Positions 1 through 62,536 of a stretch of DNA of 64,000 nt are shown one piece after another (position 1 is the first letter of the stretch; the number at the start of each line of letters is the position of its first letter). The stretch spans positions 21,822-85,821 of the IMG/VR virus record IMGVR_UViG_3300043009_000039; one strand, written 5' to 3'. The stretch is from a virus (lineage: Duplodnaviria; Caudoviricetes). The translations under genes were made by a program, and so were the position numbers. Below the pieces are notes generated by a model that was not told the DNA's origin, searched no databases, and saw only the letters and a program-made list of their open reading frames with translations.

Positions 1-1
1 C

Positions 2-6456: not shown

Positions 6457-6557
6457 AATACATCAGAACAAAAATCTTAATTATTAACACATTAAACACA
6501 AAAATACTAATGAAAACACACAAATTTGAAAAGCTTCTAATATTCTCGCATATAGTA

Positions 6558-22571: not shown

Positions 22572-22847
22572 TCATTTGTTTTTCAATTCATCGCGAATCT
22601 CGGTAAGCAAGCGGACAATCTTGGTAAGTCCTACCCAGAAACCCGTGCCGACCACCGTAAAGCCCAAGACTATGAGACCATGTATGAACCCATCGGCTTT
22701 CCACAGAATCGCTTTGCAGAGCGCCGCCGCGGTTCCAAACGAGATGATGCCGGACAAGACCGCAACTATGTAGAGGAATGTTTCGGCTCCGCTTTTCGAG
22801 ATTGCTACGTTTTCTTTTGCTTCGTTGTTTACTTCATTTGTGTTCAT
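22572..22847 (-). CDS. Two-TM membrane protein (91 aa; start MNTNEV)
   Basis: Two hydrophobic helices; module upstream of the ATG at 22847. Confidence 0.75.
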   Translation of the reverse strand: MNTNEVNNEAKENVAISKSGAETFLYIVAVLSGIISFGTAAALCKAILWKADGFIHGLIVLGFTVVGTGFWVGLTKIVRLLTEIRDELKNK

Positions 22848-22971
22848 AACCGTAAGTTTTAGTTTCTGCAACATTGCATTGCGGACGGTCTGCTTTGACC
22901 GCCCTGAACCAACAAAACTTAAATTACGCCGCCATAGGCGGAGAGTGGGAGGCGGGTGAACCTCCCGTGTT

Positions 22972-24021: not shown

Positions 24022-24210
24022 TTATCGGTTTGACAATTCTGATTCGATTAATTTTTTCAACCCCTGACGGGTATCCGCTTTCACGAACGTATAATATTTG
24101 CCGCCCGTGTCGAAGAATGCCTCGAACATTCCCTGCGGTGTCATTCTTATAGAACCGATGTAGTTGCCGTCACGTTCAATGTTTCCGTTTCTTTTAAATA
24201 CAATTTTCAT
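24022..24210 (-). CDS. Cassette protein (62 aa)
   Basis: ORF with upstream module. Confidence 0.75.
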   Translation of the reverse strand: MKIVFKRNGNIERDGNYIGSIRMTPQGMFEAFFDTGGKYYTFVKADTRQGLKKLIESELSNR

Positions 24211-24255
24211 AACTTGTAGTTTTTAATTGGTTTGTGCAGTCGGGTTGCCCCGACT

Positions 24256-24633
24256 TTATTCATTAGACATAATCTCATCAAGAAGCTTTTCCAATTTAAG
24301 CCCAATCTCTTCCAACGTTTTTTCCGAGCCGAGTCTTATTGCACTTTTAAAGATGTAAAACAAATCCTGCGTCCGAAACTCTCCGTAATCGCAGACCGTT
24401 TCACTTCCGTCCGTTTCATTGCATATGTAATCTGCTATTTCGTTTTTATAGAACGTTGAAAAATTGATGTAATCGTTTACACAAGCAAGATAAAAGTTGG
24501 CGAGCCAGCTCTTACCCAAATAATCTCTTTCGGGATAATTCTCGTTTTGGCTTTCCAAACTGAAATGCTTCTTGCACACTTTTACCACGATGACGTTAAA
24601 TTCTCTTACTCCGAGTTCTTTAAATGTAATCAT
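24256..24633 (-). CDS. Cassette protein (125 aa)
   Basis: ORF with upstream module. Confidence 0.8.
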   Translation of the reverse strand: MITFKELGVREFNVIVVKVCKKHFSLESQNENYPERDYLGKSWLANFYLACVNDYINFSTFYKNEIADYICNETDGSETVCDYGEFRTQDLFYIFKSAIRLGSEKTLEEIGLKLEKLLDEIMSNE

Positions 24634-24690
24634 AATTCTAAGTTTTAATCGGTTAATAATTGGCGAGCGGTCTTGTCGACCGCTTTAAGG

Positions 24691-24930
24691 CTAAACATAG
24701 CGCACTGCCCGGCCTTTACTTTTCGACAGCTGTTGGCGCAACAATTTTTTGTAGCCTCTTATATTGCATTCCATATTTCTGACGCATTCGTATGCCTCCG
24801 CTTTAGTCCAGAAGTAATATGTGTATTGCCAATACAAATCATATACAAACCACATTTTACCGCCTGAAACATCACACAGCCCTGCAAATCCAATGTTTTT
24901 ACCTTTGTTGAATGATTCTAATAGTGCCAT
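24691..24930 (-). CDS. Cassette protein (79 aa)
   Basis: ORF with upstream module. Confidence 0.75.
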   Translation of the reverse strand: MALLESFNKGKNIGFAGLCDVSGGKMWFVYDLYWQYTYYFWTKAEAYECVRNMECNIRGYKKLLRQQLSKSKGRAVRYV

Positions 24931-24993
24931 AATATCTGAGTTTTATTGGTTGAACATGGTGAGCGGTCGTAAGTCCTACAACCGCTCTTTAAG

Positions 24994-25539
24994 TTACAGC
25001 TCGCAGATGCCGATAACGTAATTGTGAGAGTCATAGCTGAACTCGACGGGCTGTTGCTTGACGGTATCGTAAAGCTCGCCGTTACAGATAATCAGCATCT
25101 CATCATCGTTTTTATCGTAAGCCGCGTCGCAGATTTTTTCGAATTGCTCTACCGCATCTTTTACTTCTTCGATGCTGTCGGCGTTTTCAAGCATCTCCAT
25201 AAGATTGCCTTTATTCTCTTTGAAATACTGTTGCCCCGTACCGTAAAACGTAATGCAGTCGTCAGACAGATAACGCTCTACGTCTATACCGTCACACATC
25301 CAATCGCGGAGTCTTGTGTAGAAATGATGCCCGTCGGGTCTGTCAAGCTCGAAGATGCATGTCTTTTTGAAGTACTTCTCTGCGACTTCGTTTGCAACGT
25401 CCATGTCCCTGAAGCCTATCAAAGCTTCTCTGACACCGTGAGGAAAATCGCTTTTGTCGTCGTTGGTTTCAACAATTCTAAGACTCGGGTAAACGTCCAC
25501 AATGTGCTGTAACTTTTCGGAATATTCTTCTCGTGTCAT
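24994..25539 (-). CDS. Acidic cassette protein (181 aa)
   Basis: ORF with upstream module; D/E-rich C-terminal half. Confidence 0.8.
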   Translation of the reverse strand: MTREEYSEKLQHIVDVYPSLRIVETNDDKSDFPHGVREALIGFRDMDVANEVAEKYFKKTCIFELDRPDGHHFYTRLRDWMCDGIDVERYLSDDCITFYGTGQQYFKENKGNLMEMLENADSIEEVKDAVEQFEKICDAAYDKNDDEMLIICNGELYDTVKQQPVEFSYDSHNYVIGICEL

Positions 25540-25594
25540 AATGTATAAGTTTTATTGGTTAGTAGTAGCGGGCGGGACGTCCCACCCTTAAAGG

Positions 25595-25978
25595 TTAGAA
25601 TTGAATGACCGAGCGTTTGTATTCCCAATGCCTTGCGTCCATAATCCTTGTCCGTTTCAGCTGACACAACGTGTATATCTTGTGAATATACTGAATGATT
25701 GCGGCTGTCGGGCGGGCGTCCTTTATGCAGTCCGCATTCTCTTCCGCAAACTTTCTCTCGTCAAACTCGGCGGAGTCTACGATTCTCTTTATGCCCGTGT
25801 TTACCATATCTCCGTCGTCATACAATACGTAGCAATAGACTTCGGAATAATTATCGGACAAAGAGCGCAGGGCGTTTTTCTGATATGTTTTCTCGTTTTG
25901 TTTCGCCGTTTTCTTTTCAGCTCCCTCGGGATTAATGTTGAGTAACGGCAGTCTGTCATAATACATATTCTTTTTCAT
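25595..25978 (-). CDS. Cassette protein (127 aa)
   Basis: ORF with upstream module. Confidence 0.8.
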   Translation of the reverse strand: MKKNMYYDRLPLLNINPEGAEKKTAKQNEKTYQKNALRSLSDNYSEVYCYVLYDDGDMVNTGIKRIVDSAEFDERKFAEENADCIKDARPTAAIIQYIHKIYTLCQLKRTRIMDARHWEYKRSVIQF

Positions 25979-26027
25979 AATCGTAAGTTTTGTTAGTACT
26001 CGTAGTCGGCCCGCAGACCGACTTTGG

Positions 26028-26369
26028 TCAATAAACGCTCTGTGGGTAATTTTTTAACGCCCAATCAATCGCTGATTGGCACTCTTTACGGGTTTTCCAC
26101 TTAACGCCCACGCCGTTTAATTTTTGCGGTATGCCATGAAGATAGTCATATACCACCCACCATATTTTGCCGTCCAACGCTTCGCGTTTGATTGGCCTGA
26201 ATCTGCCGAACAGTGCGCAGGAGCATTCAGCGAGTGTTCCTTTGCATTTAAATTCTCCGTTCAGATACGCGGTGTAGTACATATCGCCCATACAGTTCCA
26301 ATGGCGGTCAATTTCTCCGTATTTACCGCGATATTCATTCTTGGTGAACCATTGTGCATAATTTTCCAT
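26028..26369 (-). CDS. Cassette protein (113 aa)
   Basis: ORF with upstream module. Confidence 0.8.
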   Translation of the reverse strand: MENYAQWFTKNEYRGKYGEIDRHWNCMGDMYYTAYLNGEFKCKGTLAECSCALFGRFRPIKREALDGKIWWVVYDYLHGIPQKLNGVGVKWKTRKECQSAIDWALKNYPQSVY

Positions 26370-26421
26370 AATCGTAGCTTTATTGGTTAGATATTGTGGG
26401 CGGCTCTCGCACGCCCTTTGT

Positions 26422-26706
26422 TTAGAGTCTGCTGTAATATTTCAACAACGCGGCACAAATGTAGTAGTCATTGTAGTATCGCATCCATCCGCCGCTTATG
26501 AGCATATCGTTTATCTCGCTGTCACGGAGCTTTCTTGTTTCCCGCTCTTCGATATACGATACTTTCATTGTTTCCTCATCAACCGCCTCGATTTTGAACA
26601 ACCCGTGACACAAACGGTCGTCGTCATCATCCGTGAGTTGTTTGAGGGCGTCATAAACATCTTCTGCACTGTATGCAAATTCTACGGTTTTTTCTTTTGT
26701 TTCCAT
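26422..26706 (-). CDS. Cassette protein (94 aa; start METKEK)
   Basis: Module directly upstream of the ATG at 26706. Confidence 0.75.
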   Translation of the reverse strand: METKEKTVEFAYSAEDVYDALKQLTDDDDDRLCHGLFKIEAVDEETMKVSYIEERETRKLRDSEINDMLISGGWMRYYNDYYICAALLKYYSRL

Positions 26707-26753
26707 AATTCTTGTTTTTATTGGTTGGTTGCGGGCGGCATTAACCGCCACAA

Positions 26754-27038
26754 TTAAGGCAATGTTACGTAATAAAATCCGCACCCCTCTTTGATAAAAT
26801 TAAAACCGTTCTGTCTAACCCAGTCAGCAAAGCCGATAAAATATTTACCGTTTACCTCCAAATACTCCCCGTAAATGGTTTTCCCGATTTTCGCGTCCGG
26901 TCTATCGAGGTAAAGATATTGAAATTCAATCCGTACACGAGTTTTTCCTTTCATAAAGAGTTCTGTGAGGTACTTTTCGATTTGGCTGTAATCCAAATCT
27001 TTCGTCAAATCTGCTTTAATCTTTTGTGCTAAGTTCAT
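26754..27038 (-). CDS. Cassette protein (94 aa)
   Basis: ORF with upstream module. Confidence 0.8.
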   Translation of the reverse strand: MNLAQKIKADLTKDLDYSQIEKYLTELFMKGKTRVRIEFQYLYLDRPDAKIGKTIYGEYLEVNGKYFIGFADWVRQNGFNFIKEGCGFYYVTLP

Positions 27039-27180
27039 AATATGTAAGTTTTAGTTGGCAATTGTTAGCGGTCTGTGACCGCTATCTTTCAATCGGTTAA
27101 AAAAACGTGATTCATCAATTGTTTCGGCACGCTTAACAGAACCGGGACAACCCACACGCCCCCGAAGGATTCATTATCAT

Positions 27181-27417
27181 TCAGCGCTTCGGCAAGCTCT
27201 TCGTATGAAAAAATCCAAGCTCTTCTTCGGAATAAATCTCTTCCTCGGTAAGATTGAATGTTTTTTCCATCAATTCAAGCGCGTCAATATTGTCATCGAA
27301 CTTCTCCAAGTAGAACGCTTCAACGAATTTGCTTCTTTCGATTTCTTTACCGTTAACCGATATAGGACATACGAGAAAGAACGGTTCGTAACCGTCATGA
27401 GTCATAGTAATCTTCAT
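27181..27417 (-). CDS. Acidic cassette protein (78 aa; start MKITMT)
   Basis: Module directly upstream of the ATG at 27417. Confidence 0.75.
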   Translation of the reverse strand: MKITMTHDGYEPFFLVCPISVNGKEIERSKFVEAFYLEKFDDNIDALELMEKTFNLTEEEIYSEEELGFFHTKSLPKR

Positions 27418-27471
27418 AATTATAAATTTTAGTTGGTTAATAATGTGGCCGGCCCGAAAGCCAGCCAATGT

Positions 27472-27756
27472 TTATGAAAGAGTGAAGTTGCCACGGTATA
27501 GCTTGAACACCATCGCTTGCGCTGTGTCGTACAATTTATCAAGGACTTGATTCTGCTCCTTTCGATGAGCCTTGTATTGCTCTTCGCTTGTAATCACTCC
27601 TTCAGCGATGAGCCTTTTTGTCTCGGCAACCTGCTTGGAGATAATCGCAATCTCGAGTCGTCTGTACTGGTCTCTGATTTCGAATATCGACTTGCCATTC
27701 GGCTGTAACTTCACCCATGAGGCTAATTTTTTGCCTACATTGAATCTCTGTTTCAT
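27472..27756 (-). CDS. Cassette protein (94 aa)
   Basis: ORF with upstream module. Confidence 0.8.
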   Translation of the reverse strand: MKQRFNVGKKLASWVKLQPNGKSIFEIRDQYRRLEIAIISKQVAETKRLIAEGVITSEEQYKAHRKEQNQVLDKLYDTAQAMVFKLYRGNFTLS

Positions 27757-27808
27757 AATTTCTATTTTATTGGTTAAACATTGGCGAGCGGAGTAATCCG
27801 CTCATTGA

Positions 27809-28219
27809 TTACCACTTAACTTGTTCTACCTCGTCAAGCTCTTTGCGAATCGTGTCTATCAGCTTTCGAGTCAAAGTAACATCTTCGCACCCATACTCTA
27901 TAACGGACGGACATTGGTTAATCAGCGATATTACGCCTTGTGTAACCATTAAGACCATGTAATCTTCAGGGTCGTCAAACGGGTCTGTATAAGGGCCGCT
28001 GAGAACATCCCTTTCAAATTTCCAATAAGCCGACGCATCGGCACGCCATTCGCACAAGTATTCCAAGGCAAGCTCTTCGGACTCGGTGAGCGTGCCGTTG
28101 TAGTTTATGTCGTCCATAATGTAATCGCCTATATCACTTGCTTTGACTTCCATATCTTCTTTCCAAGGCAACTGCATTTTAGCCATTTCGCGGCAGTAAT
28201 CAGTGAAATTCTTTTTCAT
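27809..28219 (-). CDS. Acidic cassette protein (136 aa)
   Basis: ORF with upstream module. Confidence 0.8.
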   Translation of the reverse strand: MKKNFTDYCREMAKMQLPWKEDMEVKASDIGDYIMDDINYNGTLTESEELALEYLCEWRADASAYWKFERDVLSGPYTDPFDDPEDYMVLMVTQGVISLINQCPSVIEYGCEDVTLTRKLIDTIRKELDEVEQVKW

Positions 28220-28268
28220 AATTGTAAAGTTTTAAGTTTAGTTGTGAGCGGTAATAACCGCTCATTGA

Positions 28269-28811
28269 TTAGAAAGTGAGCACAAATTTATCATACGTAT
28301 CCGAGTCCGCCACCTGCTCCATCTTCCCGCCAAGAAAGACGGCAACACCATAGTAGCAGCTCATCCCGCAACCGCTTTCAAAGTATGGTCGGAATCCGCC
28401 GTTACCGTAGTGTGCGCCAAGCGGGGCTTTTTTAGCTTTTCTTCTGCAACGCCACAACATTCCGCGGCATAACTGATTCATTACGTCGGCTACCACGGTG
28501 GATTTTTTGTCGTAGCCCCAACCGCTGCAAGTGGCAGAGGCTTGCTTCCAATGTCCGTCGGAATACTGCGCCCATGCGGTGGCGTGCGGGTTGTAGCCCC
28601 AAGTTTTGTTGCGCTTCCATTCGATGTCGATTTCAAGCCGCTTTACGGGAAGCTCTTTATCCATCTGCTCAAATTCATCGTTTGCTCTCTTCAGCTCACC
28701 TCGTATGCCTCGCATCGTGGCTTTCTTTGAGTACTTTACGATATGTTCGATACACTTTACGGTAAGGTACGGATAGTCGTTTCTCAGGCTCTTTAATTCT
28801 TTGCGTGTCAT
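28269..28811 (-). CDS. Basic cassette protein (180 aa)
   Basis: ORF with upstream module; contains CSGWGYDK. Confidence 0.8.
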   Translation of the reverse strand: MTRKELKSLRNDYPYLTVKCIEHIVKYSKKATMRGIRGELKRANDEFEQMDKELPVKRLEIDIEWKRNKTWGYNPHATAWAQYSDGHWKQASATCSGWGYDKKSTVVADVMNQLCRGMLWRCRRKAKKAPLGAHYGNGGFRPYFESGCGMSCYYGVAVFLGGKMEQVADSDTYDKFVLTF

Positions 28812-28865
28812 AATTTCAAGTTTTTAATTGGTTAGTAATGGGTGTCGGGTCGCCCCGACAAATAA

Positions 28866-29210
28866 TCAAAACGTTTCGGAATGAACCCAAACGTTCCGTA
28901 TTTCTATACGGATATACATTTCTCCGTTCTGATTAAAAACGTACATGTCGGTAAACTCATTCCATAGGTGAGTCCCATCGTGCCCGTTATGCACGGCTGT
29001 TATTTTAGTTATGTCGCCCCACGTCAGACGCTCTGCGATTTTACTATTCATAAAGTCACGCGCAAGCGCTTCGGTCTTGAAAGTGAAGCTGTCGATATTC
29101 GGCATGCGGGTTATTTTCGACGGTGTGTAATTTCCGCACATTTCGCCCAATCCTGAATAAGTTTCTTCAATGATACTTACCACATAAACGTATTCTCTTT
29201 TATTTTCCAT
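28866..29210 (-). CDS. Cassette protein (114 aa)
   Basis: ORF with upstream module. Confidence 0.8.
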   Translation of the reverse strand: MENKREYVYVVSIIEETYSGLGEMCGNYTPSKITRMPNIDSFTFKTEALARDFMNSKIAERLTWGDITKITAVHNGHDGTHLWNEFTDMYVFNQNGEMYIRIEIRNVWVHSETF

Positions 29211-29244
29211 AATTTAAAAGTTTAATTGGTTGATTGCAAGGGGA

Positions 29245-29565
29245 TTACTCCCCTTTTTTGAACAGCTTGATTAAGACTTTGTCGCCTCTCTTGTAATAGC
29301 AGTGTTCGATTTCAAAGTGACTGTTCAACCGCCACTCCATTTCACCGAACGCTTTTGCGTATTCATTGTTGTCGTCGGCTTTCGAATAGTAGAAGAGAAG
29401 CTCGTCCGAGCCGTATTCCCATCCGAGAATTACGGGCGTTCGGCATATAAAGCCAACTGCACGGCATTCTTCGAAAATATACTTGTCGTCGAATACCAAA
29501 TTGCAAATCTTCTTCACTAACTTGTCGTCGTAGTCAAATACTGCGGGATTCAATTCTTCTTTCAT
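29245..29565 (-). CDS. Cassette protein (106 aa)
   Basis: ORF with upstream module. Confidence 0.8.
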   Translation of the reverse strand: MKEELNPAVFDYDDKLVKKICNLVFDDKYIFEECRAVGFICRTPVILGWEYGSDELLFYYSKADDNNEYAKAFGEMEWRLNSHFEIEHCYYKRGDKVLIKLFKKGE

Positions 29566-29611
29566 AATCTTTAAGTTTAATGTTGGTTGCGGGCGGAATA
29601 CTCCGCCCTTT

Positions 29612-29938
29612 TCAATCTTTGTGGTAAAAGGTTAGAAAGTAATTGTAGCTCGTTTTCCGAGTGTCTACGTAAATATCTTCGGGTAACGACTGTTTGACCG
29701 CCTCGATTCTGTCCTCCAACCGTTTCATGGAAGCCACGCTGATTGGCGATTCGGCCACGCATATCTTCAGGCGGTTGGTCGTTACGGCGTATGTGGCGCA
29801 GATTGGGACATTTGCGGCATAGCCGACCGACATTTCCTGCGACACTACTCTTGTGTCGAGGCGGCGGCCCTCGTCGAACAACTCATCATAGATTTCACTT
29901 ACCGAGATTGATTTTCCGTTTAATAATGCTCTCATCAT
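29612..29938 (-). CDS. Cassette protein (108 aa)
   Basis: ORF with upstream module. Confidence 0.8.
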   Translation of the reverse strand: MMRALLNGKSISVSEIYDELFDEGRRLDTRVVSQEMSVGYAANVPICATYAVTTNRLKICVAESPISVASMKRLEDRIEAVKQSLPEDIYVDTRKTSYNYFLTFYHKD

Positions 29939-29988
29939 AATTCAAAAGTTTTTAGGTGTGCGGTAGGCAAAGATAGCCTACCTTTTGT

Positions 29989-30633
29989 TTAATACGGCGT
30001 CCCATCTTCAAGAAACTCGTATTCGTTCAAATTCAGTTCTTCTTCGACCGCCTCGTCCGAATAGCCCCAATCCACGTCGTCACCGTAGGCATCGGCCAAG
30101 GCGTCCACGCTTTTCTGTATCAAATCCTCCATCGTCGTATCGTTGTCGGGATGCTTCATGTAATCGACAATCGGCTGTATCACCTCATAGTCGCAGCATA
30201 CGCCCGTGAGCGGATAACTTGCCTCGGCGTCGTCGTACATTATTCGGCTCTTGCGCTGTTTCTTGTAGTCGCCCCGATAGAATGTACGCGGCTTGACCAA
30301 ATACGGCATGATGTTGTTGCGTATGTACCGTTGAAGCAGTTTGCCGGACAACTCTTCAAGGCAGAGGTATTCGCTACCGTCCTCGGTGTCTATCATGTAG
30401 CACCAAGAGTCGTCGTTGAACTTCGGGCTGAACCATGTGCGTCCGCGGTCGTCTTTCACGTCGATACGTATGTCAAGCAGCTTCTCGAAAGCCTTGAGCG
30501 TTCCGATATAGTCGTCGGCGATACATTCTTCGTGATATGCGGCGCATTCGCCTCGCTTTGATTCAATCGCTTTTTTCTTTGCTTCTTCGGAAAGTTCGTC
30601 GTACTTGTAAAGTTTTACTTCTAAGGTTCTCAT
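29989..30633 (-). CDS. Acidic cassette protein (214 aa)
   Basis: ORF with upstream module; YKYDELSEEAKKKA...YEFLEDG termini typical of a mobile-element hypothetical family. Confidence 0.8.
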   Translation of the reverse strand: MRTLEVKLYKYDELSEEAKKKAIESKRGECAAYHEECIADDYIGTLKAFEKLLDIRIDVKDDRGRTWFSPKFNDDSWCYMIDTEDGSEYLCLEELSGKLLQRYIRNNIMPYLVKPRTFYRGDYKKQRKSRIMYDDAEASYPLTGVCCDYEVIQPIVDYMKHPDNDTTMEDLIQKSVDALADAYGDDVDWGYSDEAVEEELNLNEYEFLEDGTPY

Positions 30634-30680
30634 AATTTCAAGTTTTAAGTTGGTTAATCGCGAGGGGCGAACCCCTCAAT

Positions 30681-30908
30681 TTACAAGACCTCGTGAGGCA
30701 GAACAGTGTCACGCGATACAACGTCGAACTCATGTGTGGAGCCGTTCAATTTAAGCCCGTAAATGTGCGCGTATTGGATTTCTCTCGCCCACATGGATAG
30801 ATTATCCAACTGCATCCTAAAACGCCTTAGAGCGGCATTTTTAGAGGTAAATATGGCTTTATAGCCGCAGGTCTGTCTGTCGAAAATTCTCAATTCATAA
30901 ATTATCAT
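30681..30908 (-). CDS. Cassette protein (75 aa)
   Basis: ORF with upstream module. Confidence 0.75.
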   Translation of the reverse strand: MIIYELRIFDRQTCGYKAIFTSKNAALRRFRMQLDNLSMWAREIQYAHIYGLKLNGSTHEFDVVSRDTVLPHEVL

Positions 30909-30957
30909 AGCTTCTAAGTTTTATTGGTTGGTTGCAGACGGATTGCTCCGTCTTGAT

Positions 30958-31149
30958 TCAATATCCCTGCAGGTACGACGGGGCTTCGTCGTCCTCGGTT
31001 TCACAAGCTCTGTGACGTTCCACAATTTCACAGTTGCAACCGTAGTTCATGAGCAGTTCTTCGCGCACGTCCGACGCTTCTTCGTATGTGTCGAAACAAT
31101 CTTCAATGCATCCCGCGGCTTTATTCCAAAGTTCAAATTCAGTGTACAT
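30958..31149 (-). CDS. Acidic cassette protein (63 aa; start MYTEF)
   Basis: Module upstream of the ATG at 31149. Confidence 0.75.
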   Translation of the reverse strand: MYTEFELWNKAAGCIEDCFDTYEEASDVREELLMNYGCNCEIVERHRACETEDDEAPSYLQGY

Positions 31150-31192
31150 AATCAATTAGTTTTAGTTGTGAGCGGATTGCTCCGCCCGTGAT

Positions 31193-31711
31193 TCATTGTT
31201 GACCCCAATAAGTCCATGTTTTAACCTTTGACATTCCGTAGCGTTTGAGGTACGTCCGAAGTCGTTTCTCGAACTTGTCGCGTTCTTCGCGAACAAATCG
31301 TTCAAGCGGCTCGTAATCCTCTTCTTTCGGTTCGATACAGCTGTCGTAGTTGTGCCCCGAAATTCCGTAGATGTTCGCCTCTTTATAGGCGGTCATTTCG
31401 TAATGGTAGAGGTAGACTTCGCGTTTGGCGATACACTCGAGCATCCAGTCGTATTCGCGAAGATTCTCTTTCATGAAGTAGTCTTCGCTTGTACGCGCGT
31501 ATTCAGCTTGTTCGACCGCTCTGTTATAATCGAAGCTGTCGTCAAAGCAGAACTTTGTCTCAATGCGCGGCTTGCCTATAATTACGATTTTACCGTCGTC
31601 AAGTTTGATTGCATTCGAGAATCCCCGCATCATATATTCGGGGTTAAGGCCCATCTTTTCATATTCGCGCATGATTTCATCCTGCAATTCATGTTGCTTG
31701 ATATTCTTCAT
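31193..31711 (-). CDS. Cassette protein (172 aa)
   Basis: ORF with upstream module. Confidence 0.8.
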   Translation of the reverse strand: MKNIKQHELQDEIMREYEKMGLNPEYMMRGFSNAIKLDDGKIVIIGKPRIETKFCFDDSFDYNRAVEQAEYARTSEDYFMKENLREYDWMLECIAKREVYLYHYEMTAYKEANIYGISGHNYDSCIEPKEEDYEPLERFVREERDKFEKRLRTYLKRYGMSKVKTWTYWGQQ

Positions 31712-31812
31712 AATTCTAAGTTTTAGTTGGTTAAACAGTACGCGGCAACAGCTCGGGCCGCCGCCGCGTTTTTTAAGGCTGTACTATACAGCCCTCGCCA
31801 AATACCTCTCGG

Positions 31813-32148
31813 TTAATTCTTATACACCCTTTGGTTAATTCTTTTCACATACAGCGACCACGTTGTAAAGTGATTGGTTTCAAGGCATTGGCACGTCACA
31901 CGGCCTATCAGGTCGCAATAGCCCTTTGTTTCGGGCGTGTTCATGTAGGATTCCGTGATTCGGTAAGTTCTTTCGGGTTCGCCGGGCGCTCTGTAAAACC
32001 ACGAGCCGCAGCGCACACCGTATTCGATTTCCCGCATCTGTTCCTTTGCTTTCTTCAAACTTGTAAATGCAAATGTCGGAATGGAGCATGATTGCCACGT
32101 ACTGCCTTCAGTCCACTGATGTTCGTTGATAATATAAATATAATCCAT
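31813..32148 (-). CDS. Cassette protein (111 aa)
   Basis: ORF with upstream module. Confidence 0.8.
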   Translation of the reverse strand: MDYIYIINEHQWTEGSTWQSCSIPTFAFTSLKKAKEQMREIEYGVRCGSWFYRAPGEPERTYRITESYMNTPETKGYCDLIGRVTCQCLETNHFTTWSLYVKRINQRVYKN

Positions 32149-32209
32149 AATGATAAGTTTTATTGGTTTAACACGGCAGACGGTCTTTCAACCGTCTTTT
32201 TGCGGATAA

Positions 32210-32581
32210 TTACTCATCTTCGTCGTCGTAGCTCATCTCGATACAGTCGTGCCAATCGCCGTCGGCGTATATTTCGTCGGAGTAATAATCCGCCTCCCAC
32301 TCCACGTCCTCTTCACTTGCAGACACAAATCTTCCGTTGGCGTCCTGCAGGATATAGCGGTCGGCGAGGTTCACTTGTCCGCCCCGCAGGTCGCGCACGA
32401 GTTCCATCGGATTGTCTTTGTATCGCTGAATATTAAAGAAATCTTCGTTCAGCTCATGCCACACACAATCGTAGTATCTCTGATTCTCGAAATATCGGTT
32501 CAGCAGGGCCAATCGTTGGCCATGTGTCAGACTCTTAAATTTTTCTTTCCATGCTTCGCGGCGAGAATATTCTTTTTCCAT
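32210..32581 (-). CDS. Cassette protein with very acidic C-terminus (123 aa)
   Basis: ...SEEDVEWEADYYSDEIYADGDWHDCIEMSYDDEDE; upstream module. Confidence 0.8.
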   Translation of the reverse strand: MEKEYSRREAWKEKFKSLTHGQRLALLNRYFENQRYYDCVWHELNEDFFNIQRYKDNPMELVRDLRGGQVNLADRYILQDANGRFVSASEEDVEWEADYYSDEIYADGDWHDCIEMSYDDEDE

Positions 32582-32643
32582 AATTCATAAGTTTAATCGG
32601 TTAATAATTGCAAGAGGTCGGTCGGGAAACCAACCTCTTCGGC

Positions 32644-32949
32644 TCAGACAAGTTCAATGTCGATTCCATACGGAAGCGATTCGCTATTTTCGTAATAGTC
32701 GAATTTATACGTAGGTCTAAGGCCCAGTTCGCGTTTACATAAGCGTTTTTCTATCACCTGCTTTATCTTCCCCTCGTCGATTACTTTCGTAAGTTCGACT
32801 TCGTAATGTGGCGTAGACGTACCGATTGTTTCGTGCGTGATTCGTGCAATTGCAACAAGTCCGTGGAACTTGTCATAAAAATAGATGCCGCTCGCCGCGA
32901 ACACTACGTACATTTCAACTCCGTAATTCTTGGTTCTTAAAAATTCCAT
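32644..32949 (-). CDS. Cassette protein (101 aa; start MEFLRT)
   Basis: Module upstream of the ATG at 32949. Confidence 0.75.
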   Translation of the reverse strand: MEFLRTKNYGVEMYVVFAASGIYFYDKFHGLVAIARITHETIGTSTPHYEVELTKVIDEGKIKQVIEKRLCKRELGLRPTYKFDYYENSESLPYGIDIELV

Positions 32950-33011
32950 AACTGTAAATTTATTGGTTAGCTGTAAGAGGTCGCGTGACGACACACAACC
33001 TCCGATTCGTT

Positions 33012-33281
33012 TCATTTGTCAAGCGTGCAAGTCGCATAGTAAGGCGAAAAGCAACCGTCTTTATAAAGCGACGCCGCATAGCCCCGACGGGTCTTGTAGA
33101 CTTTCACGCAGCCCGATTCATACGAGCTTCGTTCTTTGCACACAAAGCCCCCTACCGCCTTGTAGGTTTTCGGCTTCTTTTCTTTCGGTTTGATTGAACC
33201 CGCGTAATGCATTGTCACGCCCGTAAACAGTTCGCCGTTTACCTTAAAAGGCTTTTCAGAGGTAAGTTTGTAAGTTTTCAT
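33012..33281 (-). CDS. Cassette protein (89 aa)
   Basis: ORF with upstream module. Confidence 0.75.
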   Translation of the reverse strand: MKTYKLTSEKPFKVNGELFTGVTMHYAGSIKPKEKKPKTYKAVGGFVCKERSSYESGCVKVYKTRRGYAASLYKDGCFSPYYATCTLDK

Positions 33282-33341
33282 AATTCAGTAGTTTTATTGG
33301 TTCGTGGAAGAGGGCGTGTTTTCGGGCACACCCTCCGTAAT

Positions 33342-33467
33342 TCAGTCGATTTCGACCGTCGAATCGTTCAAATCCACGTGCGCGTATAAATCTTCGGCAA
33401 AGTCGGGTTCTATAAACTCTTCAAATACGCGCAATTCGCCTTGGAAATAAATAGTTCCGTCAAGCAT
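33342..33467 (-). CDS. 41-aa strongly acidic peptide (not in the ORF track)
   Basis: MLDGTIYFQGELRVFEEFIEPDFAEDLYAHVDLNDSTVEID; its start overlaps the stop of 33460..33645. Confidence 0.65.
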   Translation of the reverse strand: MLDGTIYFQGELRVFEEFIEPDFAEDLYAHVDLNDSTVEID

Positions 33468-33645
33468 TTTTGTTTCCTCCCTTCTTTTCGTCGGTCGGGT
33501 CTATTATTTCCCCTATCGGAAACACGCCCATAAGGCCCGACAGAAACGCCAAATAGCAAACATCCGTGCCCATAAAGTTGTAGAACACAAACACGGCGAA
33601 AGCTTCAAAGAATACAAACAGAAGAAACAGATAAATCGTTCTCAT
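33460..33645 (-). CDS. Two-TM membrane cassette protein (61 aa)
   Basis: Hydrophobic; upstream module. Confidence 0.75.
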   Translation of the reverse strand: MRTIYLFLLFVFFEAFAVFVFYNFMGTDVCYLAFLSGLMGVFPIGEIIDPTDEKKGGNKNA

Positions 33646-33708
33646 AATTCATAAAGTTTTATTGGTTGGTAACAGTAAGCGGTTCGACCCCGAAAGAGCC
33701 AAACCGCC

Positions 33709-33969
33709 TTAATTCATTCCCATCCCCACGGACACAGCTCGCCCGCGGGGGGTAATCTGCCACGACAGTTCGTTCCTGCCGTCGTAGATAGTCCATCCGA
33801 TGCCGTTGTCGCCCCTTTTATGCAGGGCGATATGCAGACAGCGGCGCACGATTCGCTTCAGTTCGGTTGAGTGTAAAGTCTTACAGAAACTTTCACTCGC
33901 GATAATTGCGGAAAACTCACCCTTTCGGGCAAAGTTCGTCCATGCGATTTCATCGTAAAAGGTTTTCAT
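33709..33969 (-). CDS. Cassette protein (86 aa; start MKTFYD)
   Basis: Module upstream of the ATG at 33969. Confidence 0.75.
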   Translation of the reverse strand: MKTFYDEIAWTNFARKGEFSAIIASESFCKTLHSTELKRIVRRCLHIALHKRGDNGIGWTIYDGRNELSWQITPRGRAVSVGMGMN

Positions 33970-34030
33970 AAATAGTTTTATTGGTTGGTTCGGAGAGGGT
34001 TCGCCCCGATACGGTTTGAACCCCCTGATT

Positions 34031-34216
34031 TCAGGCGAACATATCGTACAGTTCTTCAAGGCGTGCCTTTGCGTCCTCGATTCGGGCGAATAGAGTCGTT
34101 CGGTTCCAGTACTCGAAGTGATTCTTTTCACCTACTGTTTCAAACGAAATTTCGGCTACTTGTCCGTCGTGTTCGTAGCTGTTCCATGCCACGTAATAGT
34201 AAGTTTTTGCTTTCAT
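34031..34216 (-). CDS. Cassette protein (61 aa)
   Basis: ORF with upstream module. Confidence 0.75.
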   Translation of the reverse strand: MKAKTYYYVAWNSYEHDGQVAEISFETVGEKNHFEYWNRTTLFARIEDAKARLEELYDMFA

Positions 34217-34284
34217 AATTTATTAAGTTTTATTGGTTGGTTAATTCGCAGACGGTTCGACCCCGAAGAATCGAACCCCCTGAT

Positions 34285-34722
34285 TCAGATTTGGTCCAGA
34301 AAGTCGGCCAAGTCTTTTTCCGTAGCTTTCAGTCCGAGCGCACGTTTGCGCATCAGATATTCTTTGATTCCGAATCGGGATATAAGAACATCCCGATTTG
34401 ATTCGTCCTGAAAGAGTCGGTCGATAAGTTCGTCTTGCATAGCAAGCTCGTACTTCAGATTTTCGGCCTCCTGCTTCGACGCTTCCAGTTCTTTGCGAGC
34501 GTCCTCCAACGCTTTCGCAGTCCCTTTGAGGTCTGCGATAATCGCATAGTTCTTCCGCGCTTCGTTTACCGCGGACACAAACAAACCCTTTGTGTTTTCA
34601 GGGAGTTTGCTCCAAATTTCACAGAACATATTTTTATCTAACTCGCAGAACATATAGATATAGTTCGCAACTTTGTACTCTTCGGCCTTGCAGCCTCTTT
34701 CGATAAATTCATTAAGTAACAT
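34285..34722 (-). CDS. Coiled-coil cassette protein (145 aa)
   Basis: YMFCELDKNMFCEIW motif followed by a heptad region; upstream module. Confidence 0.8.
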   Translation of the reverse strand: MLLNEFIERGCKAEEYKVANYIYMFCELDKNMFCEIWSKLPENTKGLFVSAVNEARKNYAIIADLKGTAKALEDARKELEASKQEAENLKYELAMQDELIDRLFQDESNRDVLISRFGIKEYLMRKRALGLKATEKDLADFLDQI

Positions 34723-34787
34723 AACAGTAAGTTTTATTGGTTAAACGTGGAAAGAGGCTTCAGGATTAAGCCCGAAACCTCTCTAAT

Positions 34788-34973
34788 TTAAAATTCGAAG
34801 TCTGTAAATACCTTGAATGTTCCTTTATGAAACGATTCGTAGTTCGTGTCGTCAAATTTGTAGACGGAATACATTTTGGTCGCACGGTCGTATTCGCCGC
34901 GCACCCAAACAACGGCGGACGATTCTTTCATTTTAAAGAGTTCGCCCTTTTTAAGTTCTGATAATTTTTTCAT
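34788..34973 (-). CDS. Cassette protein (61 aa)
   Basis: ORF with upstream module. Confidence 0.75.
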   Translation of the reverse strand: MKKLSELKKGELFKMKESSAVVWVRGEYDRATKMYSVYKFDDTNYESFHKGTFKVFTDFEF

Positions 34974-35018
34974 AATTCGTTTGATTGATTCGTAAAGGGT
35001 CGAATTGCCCCGACCCGA

Positions 35019-35372
35019 TTAAGCAAAGTAATTCTTTACAGTTTGGTAGTCCAGTCCGTAACGCTTACGTATTCGCGCAATTTCGGCGTTAAATTCGCGT
35101 GCTGAGTCGAAACAGCACAGTTCGAGGGCTTTAATCAATTCAAGCCCGTAAAGGCTCGGATTATTCACCTCGATAGCTCGCAGTTCGCCCCGACGGTTTC
35201 GGGCGCAATTATCCACGAATTTTATCGTTTCTTTGTACCCTTTGCCCGCCCCTTTCTTTTTTCGGCTCGATACGACGTATTTGCCCCGATTTTTCGGTTC
35301 AGGCTCGCACGGTTCAGGCTCGCACGCTTTTTTAGCTTTATAAAGCCCTTCATAGTACTCTAATAAGTTCAT
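35019..35372 (-). CDS. Cassette protein (117 aa)
   Basis: ORF with upstream module; short internal tandem repeat (CEPEPCEPEP). Confidence 0.8.
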   Translation of the reverse strand: MNLLEYYEGLYKAKKACEPEPCEPEPKNRGKYVVSSRKKKGAGKGYKETIKFVDNCARNRRGELRAIEVNNPSLYGLELIKALELCCFDSAREFNAEIARIRKRYGLDYQTVKNYFA

Positions 35373-35452
35373 AATTGTTTAAGTTTGGTTCATAGTCCGA
35401 CGCCCAGTAGTAAGGGCGTTTCGTCGCAATTCTCAGCGACTCTTCAGGGACT

Positions 35453-35710
35453 TTAAAACTGCATCGTTTCAAAAGATACAATTTCAAAGTAATTCAAATT
35501 CACCTCGATTTTCGGGCACAGTTTTTCCCCGAAAAAGTACAGTTTAACGCCAGTAAAGCGCATGAAACGGTTTATAAGCCGCTCAGGCGTGTCTTGATAA
35601 CGGTCGTTGAAATACGATACGACGAACCCGTTTTCAACTCTTAATCTCGGTTCAATCAGGGCAAATTCAAGCCCTGATTCTTTTTCGCGTAATACGATTT
35701 TGTAGTTCAT
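35453..35710 (-). CDS. First cassette protein of the array (85 aa)
   Basis: ORF with upstream module. Confidence 0.75.
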   Translation of the reverse strand: MNYKIVLREKESGLEFALIEPRLRVENGFVVSYFNDRYQDTPERLINRFMRFTGVKLYFFGEKLCPKIEVNLNYFEIVSFETMQF

Positions 35711-55107: not shown

Positions 55108-56203
55108 GAACGACATCCGTCCGAGAGTGATTGCAAGTGTAAGGCCCGACAAAAATTGGGGAGGGCTTCCGAAGCAGGTTGACAGAATCTACGACCTGAA
55201 CGGAGTCGCACCATCCTTACTTTGCAACACGGGCGGGAACAGAGAACCAAAGATTATGACACAAGAACCCATCAACGTTACAACGGAGGGCGCGGCTTAT
55301 ACGTTAACGGCTCGTTATTCAGCCATGTGCGCAACGAATGTCGTAGGCGGAGGCCACTATCCTATGACGGCGGTCTGTGAGCGGGACGAAGAACTGCCGC
55401 CCCTGCCGCAGAACCTCGATACCAAACGAGTTAAAGGCGAGCCGAGGATAATTCAGAAATACGGCGACCGAGGAACAAGCAACTACTCGGTTAAAGGTAT
55501 TTCCAATACGATACCCGCCAACCCAATGAGCGACCGCGGGCAACTCCTCGTCGAGCCGCAATCTATTAGCACCAAACAAGACAAGATGAAAGAAAATAAT
55601 ATTACAGTCACGACCTGCGCACAGCGCGGGCGCGAAACGGGGCAACGCCTCGAGGCGGGCGGTGAGGTGGCAAACGCACTGACCACCGTACAGAAGGATA
55701 GTATGGTCATCGAGTCCGCAACGGTAACAACGCAGGTTGACAGCAGCCACTTGTATTTTGTGAGCGAGCCGACGACCAGAGCCGCCGAGGAACTGCGGCA
55801 AATAGCGCAGGAGCACCGAAGCTGCAAGGTTGGCGTAAACATCATGAATGACGGTGCGCTTAGACCGTTCAACGCCGAATCAAGAGCGAAAGACAGCATC
55901 TCCGAATACTGCACGGATAGTAGTAGTAGTAGTACGGTGATAGCGGCAAGGGAGGGAAGGGTTTACGGCCCCGAAACCCGGTATCGAATCCGCAAGCTGA
56001 CCCCGAGAGAGTGTTTTAGGTTAATGGACGTCGACGACGAAGATATTGATAAAATACAAGCCGCGGGAATTTCCAAGACACAGCAATACAAGCTTGCGGG
56101 AAACAGCATCGTGGTCAGCTGTCTGTACCATATCTTCCGAACGATGTTCATCGACGACCAGCCGAAAGACGACCAACCTATACAACTGACATTGTTTGAC
56201 TGA
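55100..56203 (+). CDS. C5-cytosine methyltransferase, C-terminal part (multiple TRD-like modules + motifs IX-X)
   Basis: RKLTPRECFRLM...QQYKLAGNSIVV; several short modules upstream. Confidence 0.88.
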   Translation: MSENDIRPRVIASVRPDKNWGGLPKQVDRIYDLNGVAPSLLCNTGGNREPKIMTQEPINVTTEGAAYTLTARYSAMCATNVVGGGHYPMTAVCERDEELPPLPQNLDTKRVKGEPRIIQKYGDRGTSNYSVKGISNTIPANPMSDRGQLLVEPQSISTKQDKMKENNITVTTCAQRGRETGQRLEAGGEVANALTTVQKDSMVIESATVTTQVDSSHLYFVSEPTTRAAEELRQIAQEHRSCKVGVNIMNDGALRPFNAESRAKDSISEYCTDSSSSSTVIAAREGRVYGPETRYRIRKLTPRECFRLMDVDDEDIDKIQAAGISKTQQYKLAGNSIVVSCLYHIFRTMFIDDQPKDDQPIQLTLFD

Positions 56204-59268: not shown

Positions 59269-59550
59269 TCACTTCTTTCGATTTACTTTTTGCCATAATT
59301 CTTCGTATTTGTTGATTAGAAGCGACAGTAACAACCCGAACCAATTACTAAGGTATGCGCCTATTGCCGAGAATACCACGATTTCTATGATGTCGCAGTC
59401 ACAGTGCCACGAGGCAAGCACGCACATCCAAAAGCTCGCGCATTGAGGGCAGGAGGCAATCTTCTTAATGACATCCGCTATGGCCTCCGTCAGGCCGAGG
59501 TGGACGCTTATGGTCGCGGTCATTACTATCGCAAGAGTTATCAGGAACAT
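59269..59550 (-). CDS. Three-TM membrane protein with CxxC (93 aa)
   Basis: Hydrophobic segments, SCPQCASFW, basic tail; holin-like topology. Confidence 0.7.
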   Translation of the reverse strand: MFLITLAIVMTATISVHLGLTEAIADVIKKIASCPQCASFWMCVLASWHCDCDIIEIVVFSAIGAYLSNWFGLLLSLLINKYEELWQKVNRKK

Positions 59551-59572
59551 CTATTTCAATGTCTGCCGCCTT

Positions 59573-60004
59573 TCAAGCGATGGTTAATGCGAGCGGTGTT
59601 TCGCTGACGAAGTTCTTCGAACAGTTCTGACATCCGCTGACAGCAACATCGTTAATGGTGGCTCCCTGAACCACGGTGACGGAAGTAGGAGTGGTGGCGG
59701 CGAAAAACGGAATGGTGAAGTTGGCCGACAAGGGCTGTTGCTTCGTGCAGTCGCACCCTCCGTTGCAAGGGATGTACGAGATGATGCCCTCTACATGAAC
59801 CGTAGCCATGTATTGCGACGTCCCGACTTTCGAAAAGCTCACCACGTTGAAGCGTGGATTGAATACGGGTGTGTTGTCCGCGCAGGTCTTTTGACAAAGT
59901 TTCTGCGAGATGTTACACATTACGTAGTAAGGGCTTGTGGCGCTACCTGCCGCGAGCGTTGCCGTGATATTAGGCACGGCTACCTGATTACAATTGCAAC
60001 TCAT
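59573..60004 (-). CDS. Cys-rich beta protein (143 aa)
   Basis: MSCNCN..., CNGGCDC, GCQNC. Confidence 0.8.
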   Translation of the reverse strand: MSCNCNQVAVPNITATLAAGSATSPYYVMCNISQKLCQKTCADNTPVFNPRFNVVSFSKVGTSQYMATVHVEGIISYIPCNGGCDCTKQQPLSANFTIPFFAATTPTSVTVVQGATINDVAVSGCQNCSKNFVSETPLALTIA

Positions 60005-60757: not shown

Positions 60758-60823
60758 AATCTTTTTAAATTAGAGGTAGCCCCTTCGAATGAAAAAGCTA
60801 CCTCTTTTTTGGGGTTAATACTT

Positions 60824-61324
60824 TCAGCCGTTGCAACCGCATCCGCAGTCCTGAGTAGAAACTCTCTGTACGCGAAGCGCACATGAATTTTGAATTACAG
60901 AGCTAAGCGGGTTTGAGTTGTTATTCTGCAACAGAGCTAAAGCTTCCGCGGTGGCCAATGCCGAAGCCGAGCCTCCCGTAGCTGTCGCGCCCGCCAAATT
61001 ACGGAGCGTCTGCTGAACATCGAGGGTGATGTTGTCGGCACGCTGACCGTCTGCAATGGCGCGATTTGCGAGGAGATTGAACAGCTGTGCATTAGACTGC
61101 TGCTGTTGGTTGATTGCATTCTGATTACCTGCCGCACGAGCTTTTGAAGCTGCGTTAAGGCCGTAAGCGATGGCAAGACCACCGAAGATTGCAATACCCA
61201 AACCGCTTGCACCAAGGGCAAGACCCGTAGCCGCCACGCCTCGATTGTGGCAGTGTCCGTAACCGTAGCTGTCGCGCTTGTCGTCGCGAAGAGCCATTAC
61301 GTCTGAAATACTCAAATCAGTCAT
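60824..61324 (-). CDS. Gly-zipper, Q/N-rich protein ending in CGCGCNG (166 aa; start MTDLS)
   Basis: GVAATGLALGASGLGIAIFGGLAIAYG segment; NQQQQSN; Cys-rich tail. Confidence 0.8.
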   Translation of the reverse strand: MTDLSISDVMALRDDKRDSYGYGHCHNRGVAATGLALGASGLGIAIFGGLAIAYGLNAASKARAAGNQNAINQQQQSNAQLFNLLANRAIADGQRADNITLDVQQTLRNLAGATATGGSASALATAEALALLQNNNSNPLSSVIQNSCALRVQRVSTQDCGCGCNG

Positions 61325-61367
61325 GATTCGTAGGATTAAAGGTTTTTCCGTCAATATTAACGTACAG

Positions 61368-61399
61368 CAAAGCTAATACAGACAGCCCCATATTACAAA
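61368..61399 (-). promoter_or_regulatory. Bacteroidota sigma-A-type promoter of the Cys/Gly-rich operon
   Basis: TTTG (61396-61399), 20-nt spacer, TAGCTTTG (61368-61375). Confidence 0.7.
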
Positions 61400-61454
61400 A
61401 AGGTTACAAAATAAGCATATGTGGCTAATATGCAGACGTGTAAGTGTATATAAA

Positions 61455-61482
61455 GCAAAAGCGCCATCTTCTCAGACAGCGC
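61455..61482 (-). terminator. Intrinsic terminator
   Basis: Minus strand GCGCTGTCT-GAGA-AGATGGCGC (two G-U pairs, GNRA loop) followed by TTTT. Confidence 0.75.
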
Positions 61483-61589
61483 TTTACATTAACCAATAAA
61501 ACTTGAAATAATCTTTAATGGAAAGAAATTTTCAATTTTATCCTTAATTAACTCTATGCTTAGTGAAATGATATGAAATAAAGAATGTC

Positions 61590-61859
61590 TTAAAGCCATT
61601 TTGAAGGCATTTTCTTCAAGAACCAAAACATGCTGTGGTAAACCTTCCTTTTAGGCTTGTCGCCGTAGTTGCGGCTGATTACAGCTTTTACGTTACTCTC
61701 GCTTTGATTCATAAACTCGGCAATGTCCTTCGTTGTAGCATCCACTTCGAGATTGGTTTCAACCATCCGATAGATGCTTTTAATTTCGTCTGCCGTACAT
61801 TTGTCGTTTTCAAGCTGATACTTTATGAAGTCGCATAAAGCGACAAGTTGCTTCGTCAT
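61590..61859 (-). CDS. Small HTH regulator (89 aa; start MTKQL)
   Basis: ATTKDIAEFMNQSESNVKAVISR HTH pattern; ATGA overlap with the upstream gene. Confidence 0.65.
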   Translation of the reverse strand: MTKQLVALCDFIKYQLENDKCTADEIKSIYRMVETNLEVDATTKDIAEFMNQSESNVKAVISRNYGDKPKRKVYHSMFWFLKKMPSKWL

Positions 61860-62224
61860 GCACGTCGTGCTCTCCATAGGCGGAATAAAAGAATTAAAAG
61901 TCCGTTTAATAATGATAAAAGCAAAAGGTAGCAAAACATTGGATTGCATGAATCGGCGGAACCAAAAAGACCGACAAACACAACCAATGCACATTGCACC
62001 TTATGCCAAAAACACATCTTATACACAAAAGATAACAAGAGTGCCATCATTGCCGCTACGGGAGATATGTAGCAGAAATGAATACCCAAATATAGGTAGA
62101 ATAAATCAGAAACTCCAAACGCAAATGGAAGAAATTTTGCTATTAGCGTGGATTTCCTAAGTATTTTAACAACTTTATTCATTTTGACTCTAAAATAAGC
62201 ACGTTTTAGTCCCTCCTTAATCAT
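61856..62224 (-). CDS. Multi-pass membrane protein (122 aa)
   Basis: Three to four hydrophobic segments. Confidence 0.7.
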   Translation of the reverse strand: MIKEGLKRAYFRVKMNKVVKILRKSTLIAKFLPFAFGVSDLFYLYLGIHFCYISPVAAMMALLLSFVYKMCFWHKVQCALVVFVGLFGSADSCNPMFCYLLLLSLLNGLLILLFRLWRARRA

Positions 62225-62290
62225 ACCCGCGGTACTCTCCGCCTCGGAGGAAAAGCCTCCGCCGTAAAAGACGGAGGCGTGATAAAGAGA

Positions 62291-62536
62291 TTACTCGGCT
62301 CCCGCTTCTTTGTTCATCTCCTCGTTCATTTTTTCTTCCGCCTCTTTCCGTGCGGCTTCGTAGGCGTCGGCTTCCTCTTGGGAGATTTCGCGCCAATCGT
62401 CCTCTGAGGCGTTGGCGGCGAGGTAGACCTTGTCGGCTGTGACGATGCGTTCAAGGGCGTCAACGTCTTTTGTTTGGGTGAGGTACTTGCCGTTGTCGGC
62501 TTGAAGAACCCTCATTGTGTAATTTGTCTGTTGCAT
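62291..62536 (-). CDS. Small protein downstream of the BspA-like gene (tail-fibre-associated type)
   Basis: LQADNGKYLTQ...KVYLAAN...WREIS pattern. Confidence 0.65.
   Translation of the reverse strand: MQQTNYTMRVLQADNGKYLTQTKDVDALERIVTADKVYLAANASEDDWREISQEEADAYEAARKEAEEKMNEEMNKEAGAE

Follow-up and report, generated by a model that had tools for sequence, protein, structure and literature searches.

A small phage gene for a helix-turn-helix-like (HTH) protein carries in its 3' untranslated region (UTR), next to the terminator, an exact complement of the leader found before the start codons of a distant array of small genes. We tentatively propose that this stretch acts as an RNA anti-leader against the array leaders, in the manner of the small RNAs FopS and GibS of Bacteroides; this reading is plausible, not demonstrated. 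The window analysed, a stretch of 64,000 nucleotides, corresponds to bases 21822-85821 of an 85.8-kb phage contig, and all positions given here for this phage (Table 1) are those of the window.

The anti-leader would be carried by the tail of the HTH mRNA, or by a fragment processed from it. Such an RNA would accumulate, its seed would become accessible, and it would pair with the array leaders at positions of about -22 to -9, reaching -3 in some, thereby covering the adenines at -12/-13 used by Bacteroidota ribosomes. Binding of the 30S subunit would then be blocked, as it is by FopS and GibS in Bacteroides, and the pairing would repress translation. A wider formulation, in which the 3' tail of a regulator mRNA is a master anti-leader that silences some 20-30 early cistrons and possibly any host mRNA with a consensus leader, is doubtful at present.

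Table 1. Features of the HTH region, the second inverted copy and the small-gene array
Feature	Positions	Strand	Remarks
Gene for helix-turn-helix-like protein, 89 aa	61590..61859	-	start set by homologue alignment
Host-type promoter of the HTH unit, TTTG-N21-TATATTTG	62087..62119	-	sigma-A motif
Intrinsic terminator of the HTH mRNA	61448..61485	-	12-pair stem, GAGA loop, U-rich tail
Anti-leader (candidate)	61489..61504	-	RNA reads AAGUUUUAUUGGUUAA, exact complement of the consensus leader
Full inverted leader unit	61489..61513	+	23/25 positions match unit type TTAACCAATAAAACTTGAAATTATG; would-be ATG is ATC
Leader-like arm (GGAUAAAAUUGAAA) and small inner hairpin	61512..61549	-	predicted cis pairing partner of the anti-leader
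Host-type promoter of the next operon, TTTG-N20-TAGCTTTG	61368..61399	-	sigma-A motif
Second anti-leader (AAGUUUUGUUGGUU)	22907..22920	-	distal end of the array; one mismatch
Array of ~30 unrelated small genes	24022..35710	-	candidate targets
Array promoter, sigma-A type	36376-36347	-	full motif match

The candidate anti-leader site and the HTH transcription unit

The phage looks siphovirus-like, its contig having genes for a large terminase, a portal, a major head protein and a tape-measure protein of 2529 aa. Shine-Dalgarno sequences are missing from its genes, and a gene neighbouring the HTH region has homologues in Bacteroides MAGs, which together point to a host that is very probably a member of the Bacteroidota. 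Translation in this phylum proceeds without Shine-Dalgarno pairing. A DNA search against a GenBank phage collection gave no match, Rfam and ARAGORN found nothing over the whole window, and a PHROGs search with the ten proteins neighbouring the HTH gene gave no hits.

On the + strand, TTAACCAATAAAACTT stands at 61489-61504 and constitutes an inverted copy of the leader; its complement is located in the - strand 3' UTR of the HTH gene, 3 nt before the terminator. The 14-mer core recurs exactly six times in the array (25547, 30916, 32155, 33654, 34225 and 34729), always in the orientation opposite to that of the 61489 copy. Three further array copies match the anti-leader over 13 nt, and the 16-mer is exact in the array only at 34729-34744. 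With at most one mismatch, the 14-mer was observed 12 times, against 0.09 expected by chance per window. The 61489 copy agrees with the consensus at 16/16 positions, exceeding most working array units. A complement that is exact over 16 nt is non-random, and this argues for the anti-leader reading. A scan of IMG/VR with the bare 14-mer returned mostly chance matches within coding sequence.

The hairpin following the site on the - strand (61485-61458) has 12 pairs with a GAGA loop and is continued by the tail TGCTTTATAT. As two of its pairs are G-U, it is strand-asymmetric in folding, the - strand fold reaching -17.6 kcal/mol and the + strand fold -10.9. This arrangement, a stem-loop and then a U-run on the transcribed strand, 100 nt past the HTH stop codon, is that of an intrinsic terminator, and the anti-leader region shares it with its parental mRNA, as 3'-UTR-derived small RNAs do. 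The initial annotation had placed the motif on the + strand at 61489-61504, its complement before such a terminator downstream of the HTH gene, and matches of 14 nt to six leaders, 16 nt to the unit at 34722 and 13 nt to three more; all of this was confirmed.

The Bacteroidota sigma-A promoter was searched for as TTTG, 17-23 nt and TAnnTTTG, and the full pattern has seven matches in the 64 kb, all read as intergenic. A promoter of this type precedes the HTH gene, and since the promoter of the next - strand operon comes right after the terminator, the HTH unit would end there. By these signals, the HTH gene is a transcription unit of its own, consisting of promoter, gene, a 3' UTR of ~100 nt, anti-leader and terminator. 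That the site falls within the 3' UTR of this - strand unit, flanked by a sigma-A-type promoter and a terminator specific to the - strand, speaks for an anti-leader. Against it, no internal promoter was found, the - strand from 61500 to 61860 having no TAnnTTTG box. No RNA run turned up among sequencing runs searched for this sequence. The HTH unit had earlier been supposed to belong to a later operon than the array; this is unsupported, as both units have host sigma-A-type promoters and nothing marks the HTH unit as the later one.

The HTH protein itself gave only below-threshold HTH matches in Pfam, and its structure model is all-helical at low confidence (pLDDT 64). A metagenome scan with the HTH alignment found nothing. 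Between the promoter and the HTH gene there is a possible ORF for a hydrophobic 64-aa protein (61856-62053, - strand), which gene callers did not call on identical contigs; its stop codon TGA and the HTH start codon overlap as ATGA, an arrangement suggestive of translational coupling.

One could also imagine that the site works on the + strand, as the leader of a 9-codon ORF, MERNFQFYP (61520-61549), or as the start of an RNA antisense to the HTH gene. It is indeed a perfect consensus leader on that strand with an ATG after it. However, this ORF, the only one behind the copy, starts 15 nt past the motif and not 6-8, has T rather than A at -3 and is not conserved in a distantly related contig (G002, 64 kb, 89% complete); there is no sigma-A-type promoter upstream on the + strand, and transcription would enter against convergent - strand units. 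Such a + strand function, including the expression of MERNFQFYP that the initial annotation had offered as an alternative, is highly improbable. We also discarded a 36-aa - strand ORF (61489-61599) over the 3' UTR, which is without a conserved counterpart in G002. As neither ORF is conserved there, both were taken as spurious.

The array leader across the Bacteroidota

Each array unit consists of a stop codon, a GC-rich hairpin of variable sequence, 4-8 nt, a AACCAATAAAACTT-like stretch, 3-8 nt usually ending in ATT, and the ATG. The hairpins of the units examined (29/29) have 7-14 pairs and no U-run in the sense direction; their mean sense and antisense folding energies are similar, the sense fold being better in 14 of the 29. 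Several are preceded by an A-run, which amounts to a hairpin with a T-run on the + strand, so antisense transcription might be stopped there. The idea that these hairpins are integron-like attC sites was dropped, the stems being simple, short and GC-rich and no integrase having been noticed among the proteins scanned.

The shared start motif had been taken for the array's own tag, and this view had to be abandoned. A scan of one genome per prokaryotic species for the exact 14-mer followed by N2-5 and ATTATG gave 56 exact matches, against ~4 estimated by chance, and ~50 of them were in the Bacteroidota. All classes of the phylum are represented, with Bacteroides, Alistipes, Prevotellaceae, Flavobacterium, Chitinophaga and Saprospiraceae among the taxa. 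The genes behind the matches are unrelated and chromosomal, and include those for EF-Ts, SSB, a hibernation factor and SusC-like receptors. The leader is also shared by several unrelated phages in IMG/VR.

In the hosts, a TAnnTTTG -7 box often precedes the match by 7-10 nt, in which case the motif would form nearly the entire short 5' UTR; the median 5' UTR of F. psychrophilum is 24 nt (PMC9723704). The usual spacer of 6-7 nt places the adenines of the motif at -3, -6, -12 and -13, the four positive determinants measured in Flavobacterium johnsoniae (Baez et al. 2019, PMC6847099). The occurrence of the motif before unrelated genes throughout the phylum and the positions of its adenines indicate that AACCAATAAAACTT-N-ATTATG is a phylum-wide consensus translation leader, neither a promoter nor a phage-specific tag. 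It fits every feature of the Bacteroidota translation initiation region (PMC6847099), namely an A-rich unstructured leader and a short 5' UTR, whereas the 61489 copy has no start codon in register. The exact 14-mer consensus is not stated to be a recurrent leader in the portions available of Baez et al. 2019 (PMC6847099) or of related literature. A promoter function of the motif was considered and rejected: TAnnTTTG and TTTG elements are absent, the distance to the ATG is fixed at 6-8 nt, and the motif lies downstream of host -7 boxes.

Pairing, folding and comparison with related phages

The predicted pairing of the anti-leader with start regions is well above chance. A 21-nt block pairs with 33 of the 134 phage start regions at -10 kcal/mol or better, whereas 100 shuffled blocks averaged 3.2 and never exceeded 12 at the same cut-off; this excess, together with the six perfect 14-mers, is what would be expected of a small RNA acting at start regions. 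With a 25-nt version, 17 of 30 array leaders pair at -14 kcal/mol or better. The array leaders are predicted to be open (opening cost 0.5-2.8 kcal/mol), so that the net interaction is still favourable, at a predicted -5 to -7 kcal/mol. This supports the anti-leader reading, but one RNA would face ~20-30 sites per array transcript, an unfavourable stoichiometry.

Outside the array, the gene at 59269-59550 has a split leader at 59551-59592 (- strand), made up of CATTAACCA, a small hairpin and TTGAAATAG-ATG. Both halves complement the anti-leader flanks, giving -19.5 kcal/mol, the best value outside the array. In a search for conserved targets, the G002 homologue of this gene was found to have an unrelated leader.

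A further difficulty is the folding of the seed itself. Predictions for the complete 3' UTR give the seed a mean probability of 0.17 of being unpaired and put the cost of opening it at 6.8 kcal/mol; it would thus be mostly paired, without the accessibility expected of a small-RNA seed. Cutting the RNA at ~61530-61512 is predicted to lower the opening cost to 1.4-2.8 kcal/mol. In both the minimum free energy and the centroid folds of the - strand RNA, the anti-leader pairs with a leader-like stretch ~30 nt upstream, and this arm forms with 61489-61511 an imperfect palindrome of roughly 60 bp. These folds favour a purely cis-acting 3' structure, in which the anti-leader and the arm at 61530-61549 would make an A-U-rich stem-loop before the terminator, with no targets in trans. 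Such a structure could shape the stability or processing of the HTH mRNA 3' end (for example as an RNase III-type site), while the 22907 copy would mask the 22847 leader locally. The corresponding block of G002 is likewise predicted to pair with an upstream segment in cis, although G002 is without leader targets. However, the local stem is weak and no better than shuffles on the - strand (z = -1.2), and no start codon follows the leader-like arm, so nothing is there to mask. The arms also fit each other less well than the seed fits the array: the anti-leader matches the distant array consensus perfectly and its local partner imperfectly, so that the array, and not the local hairpin, would seem to be its reference, and this argues for an anti-leader. 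A cis-acting structure alone seems on balance rather unlikely, both as a shaper of the HTH mRNA 3' end and as a local mask at 22847.

The 85.8-kb phage has two inverted leader copies, the 61489 site and that at 22907-22920. The single mismatch of the latter keeps a G-U pair in RNA, and a hairpin favoured on the - strand (22881-22904) follows it. Both copies are thus on the transcribed strand, each followed by a hairpin that folds better on the - strand, which, with the retained G-U pair, is in line with an anti-leader role. The cis reading is also supported here, as folding predicts that this copy pairs with a leader ~60 nt downstream, that of the gene with its ATG at 22847 (z = -3.07). In the predicted folds, the segment 22847-22972 looks like a cis translational control element masking the leader of this gene. 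The 22907-22920 copy stands within a cluster of four hairpins in that segment of the - strand. A third, weak leader-like sequence, ATTAACACATTAAACACAAAA followed by an ATG, was noticed at 6483-6512 (+ strand), where it is intergenic and flanked by - strand genes; its likeness to the consensus is far below that of the two other inverted copies.

Both the palindrome and the pair of inverted copies would also be compatible with a site acting at the DNA level. The leader or the palindrome (61489-61549) might be bound by a protein such as the HTH protein, or be a recombination or inversion site, in either case independently of the strand; the element is palindromic and adjoins a putative DNA-binding gene, and the two inverted copies flank a large segment that includes the array. 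This is improbable to a considerable degree. The array motif keeps a fixed distance of 6-8 nt from each ATG and a fixed orientation, and the host motif lies downstream of -7 boxes in the would-be 5' UTR, which together suggest a translation signal rather than an operator. Moreover, an HTH dimer would not typically bind palindrome arms separated by ~20 nt.

The anti-leader reading was then set against related phages. Three contigs (L158-L160) are 100% identical over 10.6-12 kb; they represent the same phage and therefore carry no comparative information. G002 shares the module at 58.6-61.9 kb in synteny, with an HTH protein that is 62% identical. Its block directly before the terminator is identical at 18/22 positions, a value reached by 6/5000 shuffles, and the rest of its 3' UTR has no significant likeness. 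Retention of the block beside the terminator, but not of other UTR sequence, favours the anti-leader reading, and so does the 16/16 consensus of the copy although its position seems old enough to be common to G002. On the other side, G002 has no leader array with the motif and no excess of targets (one matching leader, with 1.35 for shuffled blocks). Its block pairs with its own leaders no better than the block of this phage does; the covariation of seed and cassette motif that had been suggested as a check is absent from G002.

The block is missing in the G001-type lineage (HTH protein 67% identical) and in L241, whose 3' UTRs are unrelated, and in two close relatives (G003/L240) it differs more than its flanks; all this weighs against an anti-leader. 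So do G014 and G015, in which hairpin-leader or leader arrays with motifs of this family are evident but a scan with each phage's own leader profiles found no inverted copy. The proposed conservation of the seed in relatives with an array is thus partly contradicted: these two phages keep an array without an inverted copy, and G002 keeps a similar block without matching leaders.

Two other kinds of leader were noticed in G002, at - strand gene starts within 1-3100 (L124) and at about 55968-56010 (L126). Purine-rich AAGCGA/GAGCGA repeats stand before several ATGs, and tandem ACTAAAAT repeats stand before further ATGs; both are unlike the consensus leader of the present phage. In some relatives, the HTH gene or the module of a 166-aa protein has a diversity-generating retroelement (bAvd gene and reverse transcriptase) as its neighbour, as in L161-L169, ~1 kb upstream of the HTH gene, and in L243/L244 at 516-1760. 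No retroelement genes were found at the corresponding place in this phage.

Known systems and significance

The layout of the array recalls the PeSL (promoter/stem-loop) modules of T4-like phages (PMC2839356, PMC4122927), in which a stem-loop and an expression signal repeatedly precede the majority of small genes in a hyperplastic early region, and the modules are recombination-prone, with degraded or orphan copies. The conserved part here is a translation leader and not a sigma-70 promoter, and the hairpins have no U-runs. It is conceivable that the 61489 site arose in the same way, as an inverted duplicate of a hairpin-leader module left without a gene and with little or no function. Read on the + strand, the site has a hairpin, 4 nt and a leader, which is the layout of the array units (hairpin, 4-8 nt, leader). 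It resembles the whole unit at 23/25 positions, including the spacer GAAAT also present in units 28811 and 30633, with the ATG changed to ATC. To judge from this likeness, the site looks like an inverted duplicate of the module, and the similarity counts against an anti-leader, as inverted duplication would leave just such a copy. The ~30 near-identical modules offer many recombination partners, the orphan PeSL copies (PMC2839356, PMC4122927) provide a precedent, and no such copy occurs in the other array phages.

However, as a PeSL-like module the site is defective, its hairpin being better on the other strand and its in-register ATG being ATC; inverted orphan copies are not described in the consulted parts of the PeSL literature (PMC2839356, PMC4122927). 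Unlike the array hairpins, the adjoining hairpin is suited to the - strand and has its U-run there, which identifies it as the HTH terminator rather than an inverted array hairpin. A relic that dates back far enough to occur in G002 as well should have decayed, yet the copy is at 16/16 consensus. A functionless by-product of recombination is therefore an improbable account of the site, although less so than a DNA-level function.

The anti-leader reading has its closest parallel in FopS and GibS of Bacteroides thetaiotaomicron (Rfam RF04319), which inhibit translation by base-pairing with the start regions of mRNAs (PMC11697453, PMC7366714). As a class of mechanism, the translational shut-off put forward in the initial annotation thus has an experimentally established precedent in the host phylum (PMC11697453, PMC7366714), where the leader determinants are also known (PMC6847099). 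These RNAs occur in the same phylum and, as is proposed for the candidate, pair next to the start codon of mRNAs without Shine-Dalgarno sequences, one type of small RNA serving many mRNAs; FopS-14 is moreover 3'-UTR-derived and has its terminator in common with its parent (PMC11697453, PMC7366714). The seeds of FopS and GibS are, however, single-stranded and at the 5' end, whereas the present one adjoins the terminator and, by prediction, is paired; this element also belongs to a phage, and it would target internal cistrons within a single polycistronic array. The FopS covariance model RF04319 is unmatched, so that by this model the element is no member of the family, and this counts against the anti-leader reading: there was no match at E <= 1 in 60800-62400, and over the whole genome the best score was 11.4 bits, located elsewhere, against a cut-off of 56 bits.

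Phages have antisense regulators of their own, among them the C4 RNA of P1/P7, OOP of lambda and Sar of P22. Such RNAs mask a ribosome-binding region by short complementary stretches, and C4 is processed from a longer transcript and can act on sites in the same or another RNA. C4, OOP and Sar each regulate a single operon through one or two sites, whereas ~20-30 sites share the leader here, and there is no homology.

The exact consensus leader of the phylum should be of use in annotating phage early regions and in designing expression in Bacteroides, and shared motifs of this kind should not be taken for phage-specific regulon tags. If the anti-leader reading is true, the phage would possess a translational switch by which one RNA controls many genes, made out of the consensus start signal of its host. 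No phage equivalent of the FopS/GibS regulators was found in the searchable literature, so that this would be the first, and it would be relevant to how phages time protein synthesis in hosts without Shine-Dalgarno pairing.
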